Assembly (NCBI GenBank): GCA_947589475.1
Contig: CANQBO010000007.1
Location: 33,493-97,492 of the forward strand
Length of the DNA: 64,000 bases
Direction of reading: 5' to 3'
DNA from: an uncultured Clostridia bacterium
Lineage (GTDB): Bacteria > Bacillota > Clostridia > Christensenellales > CAG-917
Part shown: piece after piece, positions 28,844 to 62,388 of the stretch
Layout of the letters: the number at the start of each line of letters is the position of its first letter
Numbering within the stretch: position 1 is the first letter of the stretch
Position numbers and translations under genes: made by a program
The notes under the pieces: generated by a model
What the model was told of the DNA's origin: nothing
The model's database searches: none
What the model saw: only the letters and a program-made list of their open reading frames with translations

Positions 28844-29020
28844 TGATTTAACCTCCTTCGCTGGATAAATAATTCGCTTGCAACCAAGTAAGGACTCGGA
28901 GTATTTGACCAAACCTCGTCGCAAGTACGCGGATAATAATATCACAAACAAACTAAATTGTAAACAAATTTAGCGGACTTTATAAATTTTTTTTGAAGAA
29001 GGATGTTTATTAAAAGCCAA

Positions 29021-30319
29021 TTAGTCCTTTAAGCATCCTATCGGTATGATATATACGCCCTCTTTGCTCTTATACGCCATTTCGCCGCCGGTAAGCACAA
29101 TAAGTGCGGACGGTTTTGAGAGTGGACATTGCTCATTTTCCGAATTGTATTTTTCAATCAGAGCATTGAGGCTCAGCAAATGGTCGATACCGTTTGATAT
29201 CTCGCGGCTACCGAGTTTGCACTCTATAAGAGCATACCTGCCGTCTTTGAGATGTAAAACGAAGTCCGCTTCGAGATCGTATCTGTCGTGATAATAGCTG
29301 AGTTGCCCTCTCATCGATTGCGAATATACCCTAAGATCCCTCGCGCAAAGCGTTTCAAAGAAAAAGCCGAAGGTCTTGAGATCCGTATAAAAATATTCGG
29401 GATCGACGCCAAGTGCGGCAATGCCTATCGACGGATCGACGAATTCTCGCTTGTATCTGCTTCTTATTGCCGAAGCGGAGCGTATGGACGGACACCATGC
29501 GGGCACATCCTCTATCACAAATAATTTTTCGAGCGCGGAGTGATAATCGTCGAAAGTGGACGCAGATATACTGTTGAATACCGCGGCAATGTCACTACGC
29601 AACAACTGTTCCGTCGCCAAAGTCGAAACGTTTCTTGCATACGATCTTAAAATGTGTCTCGCTTTTTCGGGGTCTCTGTTTTTTCCGTCTACGGTCGATA
29701 TTTCCATTGCGCATATGCCATCCAGATAATCGCTTGCCACTATCAGCTTAGCCGCGTCAGACCTCTTAGACAGGCTTGAAGGCCATCCGCCGCGACACGC
29801 CGCAAAAATGAGCTCTTCGACCGAAAGATCGGAGCGTATGCCGTCTATGTCATAATTCGGATCGTCGAAGAGCCTTAAAAGCGATATCTTGCCGTTTGAC
29901 TCGCCTGACTCGAACAGTGTCATTGGGTACATCTTCATTCGAGATATTCTGCCTATCCCCGTATGCATAATGCTGTTTTCATCAACGGAATTAGAACCCG
30001 TCAAAATGAAAAGTCCCTCTCTGTTTTCTTCGTCGACAGCACTGCGTACAGCGTCCCACAGTTCCGGAGCGACCTGCCATTCGTCTATGAGTCGAGGCTT
30101 ATCGCCCAAAAGCAAAAGCGACGGCTTTGTGTTTGCCGTTGTCAAATATGACTCGCGTCTGTCCGGATCCTGCATTTTGAGTACGCTTTTCGCTTGCATT
30201 TCGGCAGTCGTGGTCTTGCCGCACCACTTTGGCCCTACGATGAGCGTCGCCCCAAACGCTTCAAGCCTCAAAGCAAGCTCTTTATCAGCCAATCTGGGCA
30301 AATATTGTTTATATGTCAT
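29021..30319 (-). CDS. AAA+ ATPase of the AAA_14/DUF4143 (COG1373-like) type with a PD-(D/E)xK-like C-terminal motif
   Basis: Start MTYKQYLPRL at 30319. Walker A GPKWCGKTT, Walker B RLIDEWQ, and the family-typical FILTGSNS...GRISRMKMYPMTLFE. The C-terminus LEADFVLHLKDGRYALIECKLG has a D..E.K nuclease-like pattern. A 60-nt sample at 29100-29159 is 38% GC by hand count. Confidence 0.8.
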   Translation of the reverse strand: MTYKQYLPRLADKELALRLEAFGATLIVGPKWCGKTTTAEMQAKSVLKMQDPDRRESYLTTANTKPSLLLLGDKPRLIDEWQVAPELWDAVRSAVDEENREGLFILTGSNSVDENSIMHTGIGRISRMKMYPMTLFESGESNGKISLLRLFDDPNYDIDGIRSDLSVEELIFAACRGGWPSSLSKRSDAAKLIVASDYLDGICAMEISTVDGKNRDPEKARHILRSYARNVSTLATEQLLRSDIAAVFNSISASTFDDYHSALEKLFVIEDVPAWCPSIRSASAIRSRYKREFVDPSIGIAALGVDPEYFYTDLKTFGFFFETLCARDLRVYSQSMRGQLSYYHDRYDLEADFVLHLKDGRYALIECKLGSREISNGIDHLLSLNALIEKYNSENEQCPLSKPSALIVLTGGEMAYKSKEGVYIIPIGCLKD

Positions 30320-30341
30320 ATGCACCTCACATCTTTGCAAA

Positions 30342-30371
30342 ATTATAGCATTTAAAGTTTGTCGAAGTCAA
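30342..30371 (-). promoter_or_regulatory. Putative sigma-A promoter of the ATPase gene (TTGACT, 18 nt spacer, TATAAT)
   Basis: Read on the minus strand; the -10 is at 30347-30342 and the -35 at 30371-30366. It lies immediately promoter-proximal to the 23-bp repeat array. Confidence 0.5.
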
Positions 30372-30390
30372 TACTTTATGACAGAAAAAT

Positions 30391-30528
30391 GTATTTTTGT
30401 GGCATTTCATTACGTACTTTTGTGGCATTTCATCATGTATTTTTGTGTTAATTTATAACGTACTTTTGTGGTGTTTCGTAATGAACTTTTGCGGTATTTC
30501 GCAACGCACTTTTGTGGTAAGTGCGCAT
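30391..30528. repeat. Six head-to-tail, exactly phased 23-bp direct repeats (consensus GTAYTTTTGTGGYATTTCRTNAY)
   Basis: Units start at 30391, 30414, 30437, 30460, 30483 and 30506. R1 is gtatttttgtggcatttcattac and R2 is gtacttttgtggcatttcatcat (20/23 identical). R3-R6 are progressively more diverged. The period is not a multiple of 3. Confidence 0.9.
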
Positions 30529-30530
30529 AC

Positions 30531-30569
30531 AAAGTCAAGGGCGGGAATTTGTCCCGCCCTTTTGACTTT
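30531..30569. terminator. Strong hairpin terminator downstream of the 743-aa gene
   Basis: GGGCGGGA-ATTTG-TCCCGCCC core, extended by AAAGTCAA/TTGACTTT, with T-rich flanks. Confidence 0.7.
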
Positions 30570-30585
30570 TCATTTGCGCAACGGA

Positions 30586-32817
30586 CTATGCGCTCCGCTT
30601 CCTTGCTATGCCTTCATCGTAGTAGGCAAGATCTATGCGATAGCCGCGATATTCATGCATATATTCTTTGTATGCCGCAAGCTGCTTCTTATATAGTTGC
30701 TCTTTCTCGCGTGTATTGGAAAGATATTCTTTATATTGCACCGTCTTTTTGAGCTTCCTTGCGCCCAAAACCTGCTCCGTATATTTATTTGATGTAATCA
30801 GCATTCTAATTGCCAATATCCATAAAACAAAGAAATAAACTATTCCTGCGCAGGGCAACATAAAGTATATAATCTCTAACGAACACGAATATAACCGCTC
30901 TTCTGCGCTCGAATACACGCGGGAGACGTTGACCAATTTTATGATTGCGTCTCTTGTGGAAAGTGCGGGATCCTCAAATGAAATATGCCAAATTGCATTT
31001 CTGATGTCATTCATACACCAAATATATTGAGTATGGTATCCTAAAGTTTTGTCGGGAAATTCATAAAATTTAGTTATACCCGCCGGTATAGCTTGCAATT
31101 TTTTTTCAAGCTCGGCATATTGCTCCTTCGTTATAACCTGATAATCATACTCACTCACTCTTATTTCAATTTTACTATCGTCATCTTGCACCTCTGATGT
31201 TACAAGTTTTCCGCACACAGCATCAAAAATAATAGCAAAATTATTGGGAACGGAGTAGGAGTTGTGATAATCTGTAGTAGTTAAATCCAAATCAAAATAT
31301 TCGTTCAATGCGTCGATCGCCTCTATAATCGGCTTGACATTCTTTTCATATCCTTTGACTACATTCTCAAGACCATCCGCGGATGCAATATACAATAGCG
31401 CGTCCACATTATCATAAGTACCAGCATCGGTAGCCTTGAAATCCCAAAAATTTTGTCTATGCAATATAAAGTCAGCAATTTGTTCGTCGGACATATCGGT
31501 TATTTTTTTCAATTCTTTGTAACCTAAATTATAAACCGTCACATCAGAAGGCGCTTCGTTCATCTCATTCTCGTCACTGTTCTCTAGGTTCCACATACTC
31601 ATACTCAAGTGAATACTCTCATATTGGACATCATTCATGTCCTCATACCAGTATTTAAAATCATTATTATCGATATCGGTTTTGAAAAAACTATACGGAC
31701 TTATAATATGAAATATCGGCCAAATCATCAGTAGCGCAACAGTTGCGCATACAAACATAAACGGCGCAATAATGTTGGCCGCTTTTATGGAGCCTCTTTT
31801 ACAAACCTTCCAAAAGTCTTTTGGCTTTGTGGTGGCATAATAAATTATTGCAATTATTCCACCGATGACGCCCAAAAACAAGATCATCACGAGATATGCG
31901 ACGGCTTCTCTTCGTTTTATGTGTTTTACTATTTTCTTTTTATCTTCCTCGCTGTCTGCAACGGCGATATTTTTATATGTTGGCGCCTTTTTTTGAGGTT
32001 TTTGAGGTTTCCCGACAGGGAACGGCTCTAAGGGTTGAGTAAGTTTGGCGCGAGCGGCGTCTTTTTGAGCTTCGTACTCGTCCTTTGCCCCGCGCCATAC
32101 AAGCGATATGAGCTTTCTGCCAAACAGCGCCGAGATCATCAACAGTCCGAAGAACAGCGAGAAGAAGATGATACATATGGGCGCCGCGCCCGGTTCGGAC
32201 AGCCCGAGGTCGTCACCAACGTTCGCGCAAAGTATGCATCCGAGCAGGAAAATGACAAACAAAAGCAACAGGCTTGCGAGGTCGAATATACTCTTTAGTT
32301 TGAAAGTGCAGTCACCGACTTTAAACTTTGTTGCCGCAAGCGGGACATACATCGCGAACGCAAGCTCGACCGCCGCGACTACTACCGCAAGAGCGGCGAA
32401 CGCTACAAGCGAAGCGCATATGCCCTGCATTGACGCGCCCGAACCGCCCTCTTCATCAAAGTCTAAATCGTCTGCCGCAGACAAGGCAAATTCATCTCCC
32501 CAATCATCTGCGGACTCTTCTTCACTCCCCGAAAGATAGGAATACACGGAGTCGGATACTCCGCCGAATTCCTCCGCAAGTTCGCTCTTTGTGACGGGAC
32601 CCGCAAAGCAGATCAACATCAAAGCCGCAAACACGGCGAAGAGTATGGAGAAAATTTTCGGCATATGCGCGTACAGTTTGCCTATAAGCGCGGGCACGGT
32701 TGCCCTGCCAGCGGACGGAGCGGATGCATCGTTTTGTTTTGGCAAGCCGTCAGCAGGCTCGCCGCAATTCGGACAGAATTTGCCTTCGAATTCCTGTCCG
32801 CACTTTGAACACTTCAT
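30586..32817 (-). CDS. Hypothetical 743-aa zinc-ribbon, multi-pass membrane protein with a compositionally foreign C-terminal two-thirds
   Basis: N-terminal MKCSKCGQEFEGKFCPNCGEP (CxxC..CxxC zinc ribbon), an acidic stretch, at least 6 TM segments, a ~300-aa hydrophilic region, a final TM, and a Lys/Tyr/Glu-rich tail. About 1.25 kb of the ORF runs uninterrupted through ~27-35% GC DNA, which argues for real coding. Confidence 0.75.
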   Translation of the reverse strand: MKCSKCGQEFEGKFCPNCGEPADGLPKQNDASAPSAGRATVPALIGKLYAHMPKIFSILFAVFAALMLICFAGPVTKSELAEEFGGVSDSVYSYLSGSEEESADDWGDEFALSAADDLDFDEEGGSGASMQGICASLVAFAALAVVVAAVELAFAMYVPLAATKFKVGDCTFKLKSIFDLASLLLLFVIFLLGCILCANVGDDLGLSEPGAAPICIIFFSLFFGLLMISALFGRKLISLVWRGAKDEYEAQKDAARAKLTQPLEPFPVGKPQKPQKKAPTYKNIAVADSEEDKKKIVKHIKRREAVAYLVMILFLGVIGGIIAIIYYATTKPKDFWKVCKRGSIKAANIIAPFMFVCATVALLMIWPIFHIISPYSFFKTDIDNNDFKYWYEDMNDVQYESIHLSMSMWNLENSDENEMNEAPSDVTVYNLGYKELKKITDMSDEQIADFILHRQNFWDFKATDAGTYDNVDALLYIASADGLENVVKGYEKNVKPIIEAIDALNEYFDLDLTTTDYHNSYSVPNNFAIIFDAVCGKLVTSEVQDDDSKIEIRVSEYDYQVITKEQYAELEKKLQAIPAGITKFYEFPDKTLGYHTQYIWCMNDIRNAIWHISFEDPALSTRDAIIKLVNVSRVYSSAEERLYSCSLEIIYFMLPCAGIVYFFVLWILAIRMLITSNKYTEQVLGARKLKKTVQYKEYLSNTREKEQLYKKQLAAYKEYMHEYRGYRIDLAYYDEGIARKRSA

Positions 32818-32841
32818 TGTTGTAACTCCTTTTTAAATTTT

Positions 32842-32890
32842 AAGTACAATTTGCTTGTACTTTTTTCGTAATTGTACAAGATATTTGTAC
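32842..32890. promoter_or_regulatory. GTAC-core palindromic operator cluster in the divergent promoter region
   Basis: AAGTACAA-N5-TTGTACTT (32842-32862), the palindrome TTGTACAA (32872-32879), and TTGTAC (32885-32890). The four GTAC cores are spaced 13/17/13 nt apart. Confidence 0.45.
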
Positions 32891-32915
32891 TCTTGTCAAT
32901 GATTTGGGTAAAGTT

Positions 32916-33125
32916 ATGGAAAAAAATGCTATCGCAAAAAATATCAAACTTTTAAGACGCTCATTGGGACTTACACAAGGAGAATTAGCAGAAAAACTAT
33001 GCGGCAAAAAGAGCCTTGTAAGCAATTACGAGAACGGTTATTCCGTGCCCGATATTTTCACGCTCATTCAGCTTGCGGACATCTTCGACGTCACTCTGGA
33101 CGAGCTTGTCGGTCGCGACAAATGA
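32916..33125 (+). CDS. XRE-family helix-turn-helix transcriptional regulator (69 aa)
   Basis: IKLLRRSLGLTQGELAEKLCGKKSLVSNYENGYSVPDIFTLIQLADIFDVTLDELV is a canonical Cro/C1-type HTH. The ATG at 32916 is preferred over the TTG at 32904; no strong RBS is visible. Confidence 0.8.
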   Translation: MEKNAIAKNIKLLRRSLGLTQGELAEKLCGKKSLVSNYENGYSVPDIFTLIQLADIFDVTLDELVGRDK

Positions 33126-33351
33126 GCGCCTTATTTTTGATGATGTCGCCCTTGAAATTTTTAAGCAAAAATTCAAAACCCGCACTTTAAGACATTGTTT
33201 TTTGCAGATAAAATACGATTTATTGTCATCTTGAGCGAAGTCGAAAGATCCCCCTGTGCAACGCATGACGATCCCCTAGATACGCTTTGAGGAAAGCTTG
33301 TCCGATCGGAATTTATGAAATGAAACGCCTTGCCTTGGCTCTCGTCGTACT

Positions 33352-34791
33352 TTATTTCCAAAATTCGGCTTGACGGGAGAGCATCAGGTCGATGTTTTTG
33401 ATGTATTCGAGGGGTTCTTTATAGTTGGCGCAACGGGTGATGAGGTTTTTGTCCGCTTCCCACTTTTTGGAGATGGCGTTTGCGCCGCTCGCGATTATAG
33501 AGGTGTCCTCCTCCATAATGTCGATGTTGTAGATGCACTCGTGCCCGGGCAAGGAATAACCGACGTTTTCGAGGTTGCCGCTAGTATACTTTTGGCGATA
33601 CATATAGTACGGTCTGTAGCCCGCCGCGGACAGCTTGTCGTAGGCGTAGTCCACCATGCGCGAGGCGAGGTCGAAGCCCGCGTCCTCGAAGCCCTCGTTT
33701 TTGAGGCGACTGCCTTTTTTCATATACAGCGTATGCACGGTGATGTTTTCGGGAGCGAGCGCGCAGGAAATGTCCACACTGCGCTTGAAATCCTCGAAAG
33801 TTTCGTTTGGCAACATCGCGATGAGGTCCATATTTACGTCCATTTTGCCCTTGACGAGCGCGTAGGCGTTGTAGATGTCCCTCGATCTATGCTTTCTGCC
33901 GATGAGTTCGAGCGTAGCGTCGTTGAAAGTCTGCGGATTGACGGAAATTCTGTTTACGCCATGGGAGAGCAACATCTCGATCATTTCGCGGTCTATAGTA
34001 TCCGGTCTGCCCGCCTCCACGGTGAATTCGCGCGCGGATGGACAATATGAGAGTATCCTATCCAAATTTTCCACGCCTATTGACGTCGGCGTTCCCCCTC
34101 CTATGTAGACGGAGCGGATGTTGATATTTTTTGACTTGATAAGCTCCTTTGTCTGCTCCAACTCCCGCAAAAGGCAATCGACATAGGGCGAGACAAGCTT
34201 CTTCTGCTTGTCGAGGGGAAGGCTGACAAACGAGCAATACGCGCACCTTGTGGGACAAAACGGAATGAACACAAACGCGTCCATATCCCGCTCGGACTTG
34301 TTGCGGAGCGGCTTTTGCACCTCGACTATGCGCTCGATAAGCTCGATCTTGCGCGGGCTTACGTCGTAGTCCTCCTCAAACACTTCGCGCGCGCTCTTGC
34401 CGTACAGCGCGGGCGAGGACTCTATCTCAACATACAGCTTTGTGGGACGAATTCCCGTGAGACAACCATACGGCAGACGCACTCCCGTGAGAAAAACAAG
34501 AGTGTTGTAGATAGCCATTTTGAGGAAGCGTTTTTCCTCGCGTTTGCGCAAAAGTTCGCTGTCCGCTTTGACAGGATATATAAATTTTTTGGAAAAGTTG
34601 TCAAGTTTGTCCGATTTGAGCGTGACGATAAAGGCGCGCGGAGAGCGGGAGTAGCTCACCTCAAGCGAGAAGTCCCCCTCGACGCGGCTGTCGAAAAGAC
34701 GGATAAGCTCCATCAGATCGCCCGCATATTCCTCATCGCAACAAACAAAATGTATCATAAACTCAAAAAGTTCCCCTGCTTTACGCTTCAA
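33352..34791 (-). CDS. hemZ: Radical SAM coproporphyrinogen-III dehydrogenase-like protein (HemN/HemZ family)
   Basis: 479 aa with the CxxxCxxC cluster FCPTRCAYCSF and GGGTPT. The long N-terminal extension is typical of HemZ-like proteins. Confidence 0.75.
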   Translation of the reverse strand: MKRKAGELFEFMIHFVCCDEEYAGDLMELIRLFDSRVEGDFSLEVSYSRSPRAFIVTLKSDKLDNFSKKFIYPVKADSELLRKREEKRFLKMAIYNTLVFLTGVRLPYGCLTGIRPTKLYVEIESSPALYGKSAREVFEEDYDVSPRKIELIERIVEVQKPLRNKSERDMDAFVFIPFCPTRCAYCSFVSLPLDKQKKLVSPYVDCLLRELEQTKELIKSKNINIRSVYIGGGTPTSIGVENLDRILSYCPSAREFTVEAGRPDTIDREMIEMLLSHGVNRISVNPQTFNDATLELIGRKHRSRDIYNAYALVKGKMDVNMDLIAMLPNETFEDFKRSVDISCALAPENITVHTLYMKKGSRLKNEGFEDAGFDLASRMVDYAYDKLSAAGYRPYYMYRQKYTSGNLENVGYSLPGHECIYNIDIMEEDTSIIASGANAISKKWEADKNLITRCANYKEPLEYIKNIDLMLSRQAEFWK

Positions 34792-62108: not shown

Positions 62109-62388
62109 CTTCAAAAATAACGCATAAAACACATATCGTATTTTATTTTACATAAAAATCACACGTTTCGTATTTTATAATGCGTAAAACCAACCATTTA
62201 TATAAAAATCGTTCAAAAATCCGCCTATCGAATAAAATATGCAGATATACGTATTGTGTTTTTAATGTGTCTGTGAAAAAAGAAAAATTTTGCGGGTCGT
62301 CCACAATTTTGTTTACAAGCCTATACAAATTTGTTATCATTATTATATCTGCGCGCTACATGCGCGCGCAAATGTGACGAGGAGATGT

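Follow-up and report, generated by a model that had tools for sequence, protein, structure and literature searches.

The window analysed here is a stretch of 64,000 nucleotides from contig CANQBO010000007.1 of an uncultured Clostridia bacterium. An array of head-to-tail 23-bp repeats in this window lies between the gene encoding a 432-aa ATPase-nuclease and the gene encoding a 743-aa zinc-ribbon/membrane protein (P743). All genes at the array locus are located on the minus strand, and the wider flanks contain the rpsO-pnp and relA-recJ-secDF housekeeping genes. The coordinates of the features are listed in Table 1.

Table 1. Features of the array locus, numbered from the first letter of the window.
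Feature	Position	Strand	Basis or remark
Accessory cassette (array, promoter and ATPase gene)	28998..30528, borders approximate	-	Homology breaks against genomes G017, G059 and G008
432-aa ATPase-nuclease gene	29021..30319	-	Pfam, PADLOC, AlphaFold2, Foldseek
ATG of the ATPase gene	30319	-	Read from the sequence
Ribosome-binding site GAGGTG	30323..30328	-	Read from the sequence
-10 element TATAAT, TG-extended, 18-bp spacer	30342..30347	-	Promoter scan
-35 element TTGACT of the ATPase promoter	30366..30371	-	Promoter scan
Array of six head-to-tail 23-bp units	30391..30528	-	Tandem Repeats Finder, unit table, genome search
Unit starts	30391, 30414, 30437, 30460, 30483, 30506	+ (numbering)	Phased, without indels
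G+C-rich hairpin, bidirectional terminator-like, ending the P743 gene	30537..30561	-	Outside the cassette
P743 gene (743 aa, zinc-ribbon/membrane protein)	30586-32817	-	No Pfam match

The terminator of the P743 gene and the TTGACT-18-TATAAT promoter of the ATPase gene, both described in the initial annotation, are present. The promoter matches 11 of 12 consensus positions and is a near-consensus sigma-70 promoter. Between the last repeat unit and the -35 element downstream of it lie 19 bp; measured from the last CAAAA core, the distance is 28 bp. The array had been assigned to positions -45 to -185; its upstream placement stands, but with a transcription start near 30335 it spans about -56 to -193, so that the earlier figures are about 10 bp off. 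As had been claimed, the array is situated directly upstream of the ATPase promoter, a position that would suit a cooperative regulator.

Tandem Repeats Finder reported the array at 30391-30519 with a period of 23, 5.6 copies, 77% matches, 0% indels and a score of 132, the strongest short-period array of the window. This output and direct reading agree with the six unit starts of the initial annotation exactly, with no phase slip. Units 1 and 2 are 20/23 identical, also as described. The consensus of the units is GTACTTTTGTGGTATTTCATAAC (GTTATGAAATACCACAAAAGTAC in the gene sense, minus strand), and the six units match it at 20, 20, 19, 20, 19 and 15 of 23 positions. The supposed decay of units with distance applies to the most distal unit (15/23) but is not clear in the others. 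A core CC(A/G)CAAAA is found in five of the six units, with AACACAAAA in its place in unit 3, and the shorter core C(A/G)CAAAA is common to all six. The array is non-coding and iteron-like in form, being composed of head-to-tail 23-bp repeats of the protein-binding type, which agrees with its first description. The 8-mer GTACTTTT occurs nine times in the whole window against 1.44 expected, a count that none of 100 shuffles reached, and two of these copies lie within the array. Elsewhere in the window, a tandem duplication of an A/T-rich 32-bp unit lies at 62129-62189 (Tandem Repeats Finder score 80). Outside the window, the same genome contains a period-66 array of about 15 copies with a CRISPR-like look at a contig end (G000:C18:1-1002).

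No further copy of the 23-bp unit with up to 3 mismatches was found in the 1.89-Mb genome, so the unit is unique; the nearest other matches are two weak singles with 4-5 mismatches. Although the core on its own is frequent in the genome (70 copies), phased pairs (C[AG]CAAAA-N16-C[AG]CAAAA) are almost confined to the array, which holds five of the genome's six. Lag-23 self-similarity of at least 0.70 was detected only upstream of the ATPase gene among the 1351 upstream regions of this genome. Dozens of scattered copies of the 23-mer had been named beforehand as the mark of a generic REP-like element. With no dispersed copies, the REP-like reading fails. An RNA element was ruled out by an Rfam search of 29800-33500 without a match at E≤1 and by folding of the array region, in which the terminator hairpin alone folds. 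A CRISPR was rejected as well, because the units are contiguous and without spacers.

Genomic comparison within the genus places the array in an accessory setting. Ancestrally, a hemN-like gene precedes rpsO, as seen in genome G061. In G017 and G060, an XRE gene and the P743 gene are inserted and P743 abuts the rpsO leader, with neither ATPase gene nor array. G059 contains the XRE gene, a P743 fragment, six 23-bp units, the same promoter and an ATPase that is 97% identical at the protein level. G008 has four units and a decayed promoter, followed by 260 bp of unrelated DNA and then rpsO. No ATPase homologue was found genome-wide in G008 at E≤1e-20, in an assembly that is 83% complete, and no gene remnants were detected in its orphan locus by BLASTX against the ATPase proteins or by BLASTN against the window's genome and the fetched loci. 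The orphan array and the sequence that follows it correspond to positions 165-510 of locus L002 (G008:C8), and the 260-bp stretch resembles neither the ATPase nor anything else among the fetched sequences.

The homology between the window and G059 starts at the distal end of the array, which forms the left border of the inserted segment. Homology with the empty sites is regained about 24 bp past the stop codon, which sets the right border. Judged by these two breaks, the array, promoter and gene form the unit of gain and loss, a cassette of about 1.5 kb situated between the variable membrane-protein gene P743 and rpsO. The initial annotation had considered such an array unexpected in a housekeeping neighbourhood. 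The surroundings are indeed housekeeping, but the array itself belongs to an inserted accessory cassette, which explains its presence there. Members of the ATPase subfamily show a patchy distribution, in 7 of 52 congeners. Three congeners have 6, 6 and 4 units, and copy numbers of 2-6 occur in the family as a whole. A BLAST search of the array DNA against 40 relatives returned G008 as the sole match. Array sequences diverge too fast for a DNA search, and relatives were therefore traced via the protein.

Further observations were made on both sides of the cassette. The XRE gene (HTH_3, 32904-33125, plus strand) and the P743 gene (minus strand) are divergent, and GTACAA/TTGTAC palindromes lie between them at about 32846-32895 (window 32818-33125). 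The XRE-P743 pair is itself accessory and sits as an islet between the hemN-like gene and rpsO; it is found in G017, G060 and G059 but not in G061. The P743 homologue of G060 (L042, G060:C15), with 49% identity, contains one in-frame TGA. On the other side, no terminator was found between the stop codon of the ATPase gene (29021) and the rpsO promoter (TTTACA-17-TATTAT, 28964-28936). The strong cassette promoter could drive read-through into rpsO-pnp unless it is repressed.

The ATPase matches AAA_14 (PF13173; E=3.1e-13, residues 24-137) and DUF4143 (PF13635; E=1.4e-28) in Pfam, both above the cut-off. It also shows a full-length match to the PADLOC model for PDC-S01 (PDLC04790; E=8.6e-53, residues 4-430), while neither a PDB sequence search nor NCBIfam returned a useful match. 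PDC-S01, an ATPase fused to a PD-(D/E)xK domain, is among the most abundant defence candidates (PMC12988326, PMC13356809, PMC3424549). Genes of this AAA_14-DUF4143 type are reported to rank among the commonest candidate defence loci of bacteria and archaea and to be mechanistically uncharacterised (PMC12988326, PMC13356809). The anti-phage role of PDC-S01 is that of a candidate and is experimentally unvalidated (PMC12988326). Among 80 sequences, the Walker A/B residues G29, K31, G34, K35, T36, T37, D79 and E80 are invariant; of the PD-(D/E)xK residues, E322 and K368 are invariant and D352 and E366 are at least 90% conserved. The pN/pS ratio of the gene against G059 is 0.056. Based on this ratio and on the conserved Walker A/B and nuclease residues, the ATPase gene is judged to be functional and under strong purifying selection.

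An AlphaFold2 model of the ATPase was built from the 80 sequences and reached a pLDDT of 92.4 and a pTM of 0.92. It replaced an earlier 12-sequence model, which was poor in the ATPase domain (pLDDT 68). The modelled order of domains is an AAA+ core (residues ~24-130), a helical lid, a winged helix (~217-293) and a PD-(D/E)xK nuclease domain (~296-430), whose alpha/beta core was modelled at a pLDDT above 90. In the model, the winged helix-turn-helix comprises helices 217-229 and 237-245, a recognition helix at 253-265 and a basic wing (W275-R291). The protein thus carries a predicted DNA-reading module. The best folds retrieved by Foldseek are the archaeal AAA+/winged-helix proteins 2qen and 2fna, followed by an NLR, Orc1/Cdc6 and clamp loaders.

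The protein-guided search retrieved 16 genomic and 80 metagenomic loci, with 43-97% identity, from Clostridia, Defluviitaleaceae, Bacilli, Spirochaetes, Bacteroidaceae (Bacteroidota) and Verrucomicrobia. When 35 lags were tested on the 220 bp preceding the start codon, self-similarity was highest at a lag of exactly 23 in 79 of 84 loci. In the controls (downstream regions and shuffles), the best lags scatter and none reaches 0.75, and the base rate in the window's genome is 2.0% of the 1351 upstream regions. More homologues elsewhere in the genus also have lag-23 arrays abutting the -35 element, and a cultured example of this arrangement is found on plasmid pBUN1 of Bacteroides uniformis NBRC 113350. 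The linkage between the array and the gene family is strict. The arrays contain 1.4-6.3 copies and always have the same orientation relative to the gene. A search of 77 loci for the gene's own unit behind the gene, where it could mark the second end of a mobile element, found no copy. Few members of the family are carried by plasmids (10 of 72,556 records) or phages (4 records).

Placed in a common register, the arrays give the profile nnAnTnAAATaCCnCAAAAnnnn, with information peaking at CAAA. Units of different lineages have the core CnCAAA in common and otherwise differ, the lineage-specific positions being 11-14 and 19-23/1-2. In most loci, the distance from the C of the last core to the start of the -35 element is 17-19 bp, against 28 bp in the window and G059; in some relatives the -35 element sits inside the last unit. 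Taken modulo 23 over loci L046-L141, the distance from the last core to the -35 element falls into two classes, a majority class of about 18 bp and another of about 29 bp (the window and G059). These classes differ by one helical turn or half a unit. A second DUF4143 paralogue in the same genome (L004, G000:C18, ~806-860) has two units 23 bp apart that abut a TTGACA. These units, ccgcaaagaaaatttttataatt and acgcaaaaattctcaatagttgg, have a related core and a flank different from that of the window array.

In a broad Pfam DUF4143 sample of 30 loci from other subfamilies, lag 23 was found in 1/30, and lag 33 was best in two, one of them clear (score 0.67). Because these other subfamilies mostly have no 23-bp arrays, the 23-bp rule holds for the clade studied and not for the whole Pfam DUF4143 family. 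By eye, other DUF4143 subfamilies show a palindrome across the -10 element (cggctataat...attatagccg), dispersed GTGTGAT boxes or a 33-bp period (loci L155, L157, L159, L164 and L165; L167, L169, L170, L172 and L173; L174). This suggests that operator architectures are subfamily-specific in DUF4143.

Covariation between protein and unit was analysed in 57 non-redundant loci by APC-corrected mutual information over about 245 residues and the 23 unit bases. The six strongest pairs all involve winged-helix residues (248, 253, 254, 257 and 284), with 254 paired to unit positions 2 and 1, 284 to 14, 253 and 257 to 22, and 248 to 14. Residues 236-292 account for 13 of the 30 top pairs, where 4.3 would be expected (p=1e-4). 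Two generic phylogeny-controlled tests, sister-pair Fisher tests and all-against-all branch co-changes, did not single out the winged helix, both being confounded by overall divergence and noisy for short arrays. The mutual-information signal may therefore be partly clade structure. Targeted tests were performed for the position-14 pairs only (residues 284 and 248), using contingency counts, branch co-changes (for 284) and a predictor ranking. Ala or Gly at residue 284 is accompanied by a purine at unit position 14 in all 33 loci, and Val, Ile, Met or Thr by a T in 22 of 27. The class of residue 284 changed 21 times and that of base 14 changed 17 times, with 9 changes on the same branch against roughly 2.4 expected, and the switches are scattered over the tree. 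Among all residues, the best predictors of base 14 are 284 (64 of 74 loci) and 248 (62 of 74), the others reaching at most 55. The window conforms to this pattern, with Ala284 in the protein and A or G at position 14 of the units. The position-14 pairs thus hold up in the targeted tests.

We propose, with a probability of about 0.65, that the array is a cis-linked array of binding sites, an operator or an iteron-like assembly site, for the ATPase-nuclease encoded downstream. This reading is drawn from comparative sequence analysis, from which we infer physical binding, cooperativity and the sign of regulation. Each 23-bp unit would be one asymmetric site, consisting of the conserved CC(A/G)CAAAA core and lineage-specific flanks, and would be read by one winged helix. 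Since the units are direct repeats, the protomers would be aligned head to tail at fixed 23-bp intervals, with cooperative binding. Cooperative filling of the array would then confer specificity, which single sites, being frequent in the genome, would not. Binding beside the near-consensus promoter may feed back on the gene's own transcription, and auto-repression would keep a potentially toxic nuclease low. The array, promoter and gene make up a self-contained cassette that is gained and lost as one piece.

A near-consensus sequence is typical of promoters that a repressor holds down. The sign of regulation is probably auto-repression, which is made likelier by the near-consensus promoter, by the arrays that abut the -35 element and by the relatives in which the -35 element sits inside the last unit. 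With 19 bp between the array and the -35 element in the window, simple occlusion is not obvious there. Less probably, given this gap, the array acts by activation or has no transcriptional role.

An extended version of the proposed binding, which we regard as rather unlikely, treats the array as an obligatory nucleation strip. The ATPase-nuclease would polymerise on it head to tail in the 23-bp register with a simple, evolvable read-out code, in which wing residue 284, for example, would read unit base 14. The protein would be parked there in an inactive state, and a disturbance of ATP, DNA topology or the filament by infection would release or activate it. If this were true, the cassette would be a self-addressed, sequence-programmable AAA+ nuclease, and the most abundant uncharacterised defence candidate would use 'home-site sequestration', with a private orthogonal address for each paralogue.

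Several explanations without a role for the encoded protein as the reader of the array were weighed. A host factor could bind the array, or the array could be a UP-element-like or curved-DNA promoter enhancer whose phased A-tracts tune transcription. The A/T-rich units, the conservation of the CAAAA core across phyla and the location upstream of the -35 element, where alpha-CTD and UP elements act, are in line with this. However, the 23-bp period and the orientation track the gene through Firmicutes, Spirochaetes, Bacteroidota and Verrucomicrobia, among which host factors and promoter types differ, and the variable unit bases track encoded winged-helix residues. Curved DNA further requires phasing with the helix, with which a 23-bp period is out of phase, and a UP element would be acting on a promoter that is already near-consensus. 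We therefore consider this explanation unlikely. Neutral slippage, which would make the repeats a VNTR without function, accounts for the variable unit copy number but not for a recurrence of the same period with different sequences in 79 of 84 homologues against a base rate of 2%. Drift is also limited to the flanks, the core being conserved both within species and between them, and the spacing to the -35 element is fixed, which leaves slippage with a close to negligible probability.

The initial annotation had also pointed to plasmid or phage origins and to the neighbouring XRE regulator. In the former case, the array would be an iteron origin or the mobile-element end of an integrated plasmid or phage, with the ATPase as an Orc1/Cdc6-like initiator. 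The location of 23-bp direct repeats beside the gene of a predicted DNA-binding AAA+ protein, the resemblance of its fold to Orc1/Cdc6 and the patchy distribution of the cassette would suit such an origin. Yet there is no Rep-family domain in the ATPase, which matches AAA_14 and DUF4143 only, or in the P743 neighbour, which is without a Pfam match. No DnaA box with up to 1 mismatch was found from 26.5 to 41.1 kb, nor an AT-rich unwinding element nearby, and the GC-skew trend is unbroken. The cassette contains a single gene and has no second end, its family is rare on plasmids and phages, and the nuclease domain of its protein is intact, whereas an initiator would not be expected to have one. 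We thus consider an origin or mobile-element end very unlikely, and the plasmid/phage suggestion was not borne out. In the latter case, the XRE regulator would bind both the array and its own operators at 32842-32890 and co-regulate the two loci. The 8-mer GTACTTTT, on which this idea was built, does occur at 32857-32864 as well as in the array, but with nine copies in the window it provides no specific link to XRE. The operators are the GTACAA/TTGTAC palindromes, whose half-site is missing from the array units. Moreover, the distribution of the two features contradicts the idea: G017 and G060 have the XRE-P743 pair but no array, dozens of unrelated loci have the array but no XRE gene, and the array travels with the ATPase gene across sites and phyla. 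A single regulator for both loci was accordingly abandoned as hardly credible.

The proposed ATPase-nuclease and its array can be compared with known systems in which a protein reads arrayed sites next to its own gene. In the iterons of theta plasmids (R6K pi, RK2 TrfA, P1 RepA and pPS10 RepA), tandem direct repeats with a phasing of about 22-23 bp lie by the Rep gene. Each Rep protomer reads a single repeat through a winged-helix module, and the arrays also serve as operators for autoregulation. The array studied here is similar in having six 23-bp direct repeats without indels beside the gene of the presumed binder, whose binding is predicted. It differs in lacking a Rep-family domain, origin features and a replicon, and its presumed binder is an AAA+ ATPase-nuclease. 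The combination of AAA+ core, lid and winged helix also resembles the Orc1/Cdc6-ORB system (PDB 2qby), and Orc1/Cdc6 proteins are among the Foldseek matches (2qby_B, E=2.2e-5; 7jpo_A, E=8.4e-6), with TM-scores of only 0.2-0.5, those of these two being 0.22-0.26. As with Orc1 and ORBs or DnaA and the DnaA boxes at its own promoter, the gene adjoins arrayed sites, here predicted ones, for its own product. By analogy, ATP-dependent oligomerisation on the arrayed sites would be the mode to expect. ORBs are inverted around an unwinding element. Unlike the Orc1/ORB pair, the array has no replication context and the ATPase has an additional PD-(D/E)xK domain. An initiator-origin pair of the Orc1/Cdc6-ORB type was rejected on the basis of the unbroken GC skew, the absence of origin features and the patchy accessory distribution.

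The best structural matches are PABY2304 (2qen; E 3e-7) and SSO1545 (2fna; E 2e-6), with target-normalised TM-scores of 0.51 and 0.47, respectively. Both are shorter than the ATPase (350 and 352 residues) and leave no room for the whole C-terminal nuclease domain. To our knowledge, neither PABY2304 nor SSO1545 has an established function or DNA site. The arrangement of array and gene is iteron/Rep-like or Orc1/ORB-like in form but, as it lacks both a Rep domain and an origin, is a member of neither system.

In the literature searched for mentions of DUF4143 or PDC-S01, no upstream repeat array or DNA-binding specificity was found. The gene-linked 23-bp array is a new addition to the knowledge of the PDC-S01 family (COG1373), and its 23-bp register provides the first concrete molecular handle on this family. 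It offers a predicted DNA ligand, a predicted DNA-reading module, at least one residue-base correspondence and a testable regulatory circuit. Cassette membership also explains iteron-like arrays in housekeeping neighbourhoods, which aids genome annotation. For defence work, the minimal unit to clone would be the array, promoter and gene together, and clones without the array may be misregulated or toxic.
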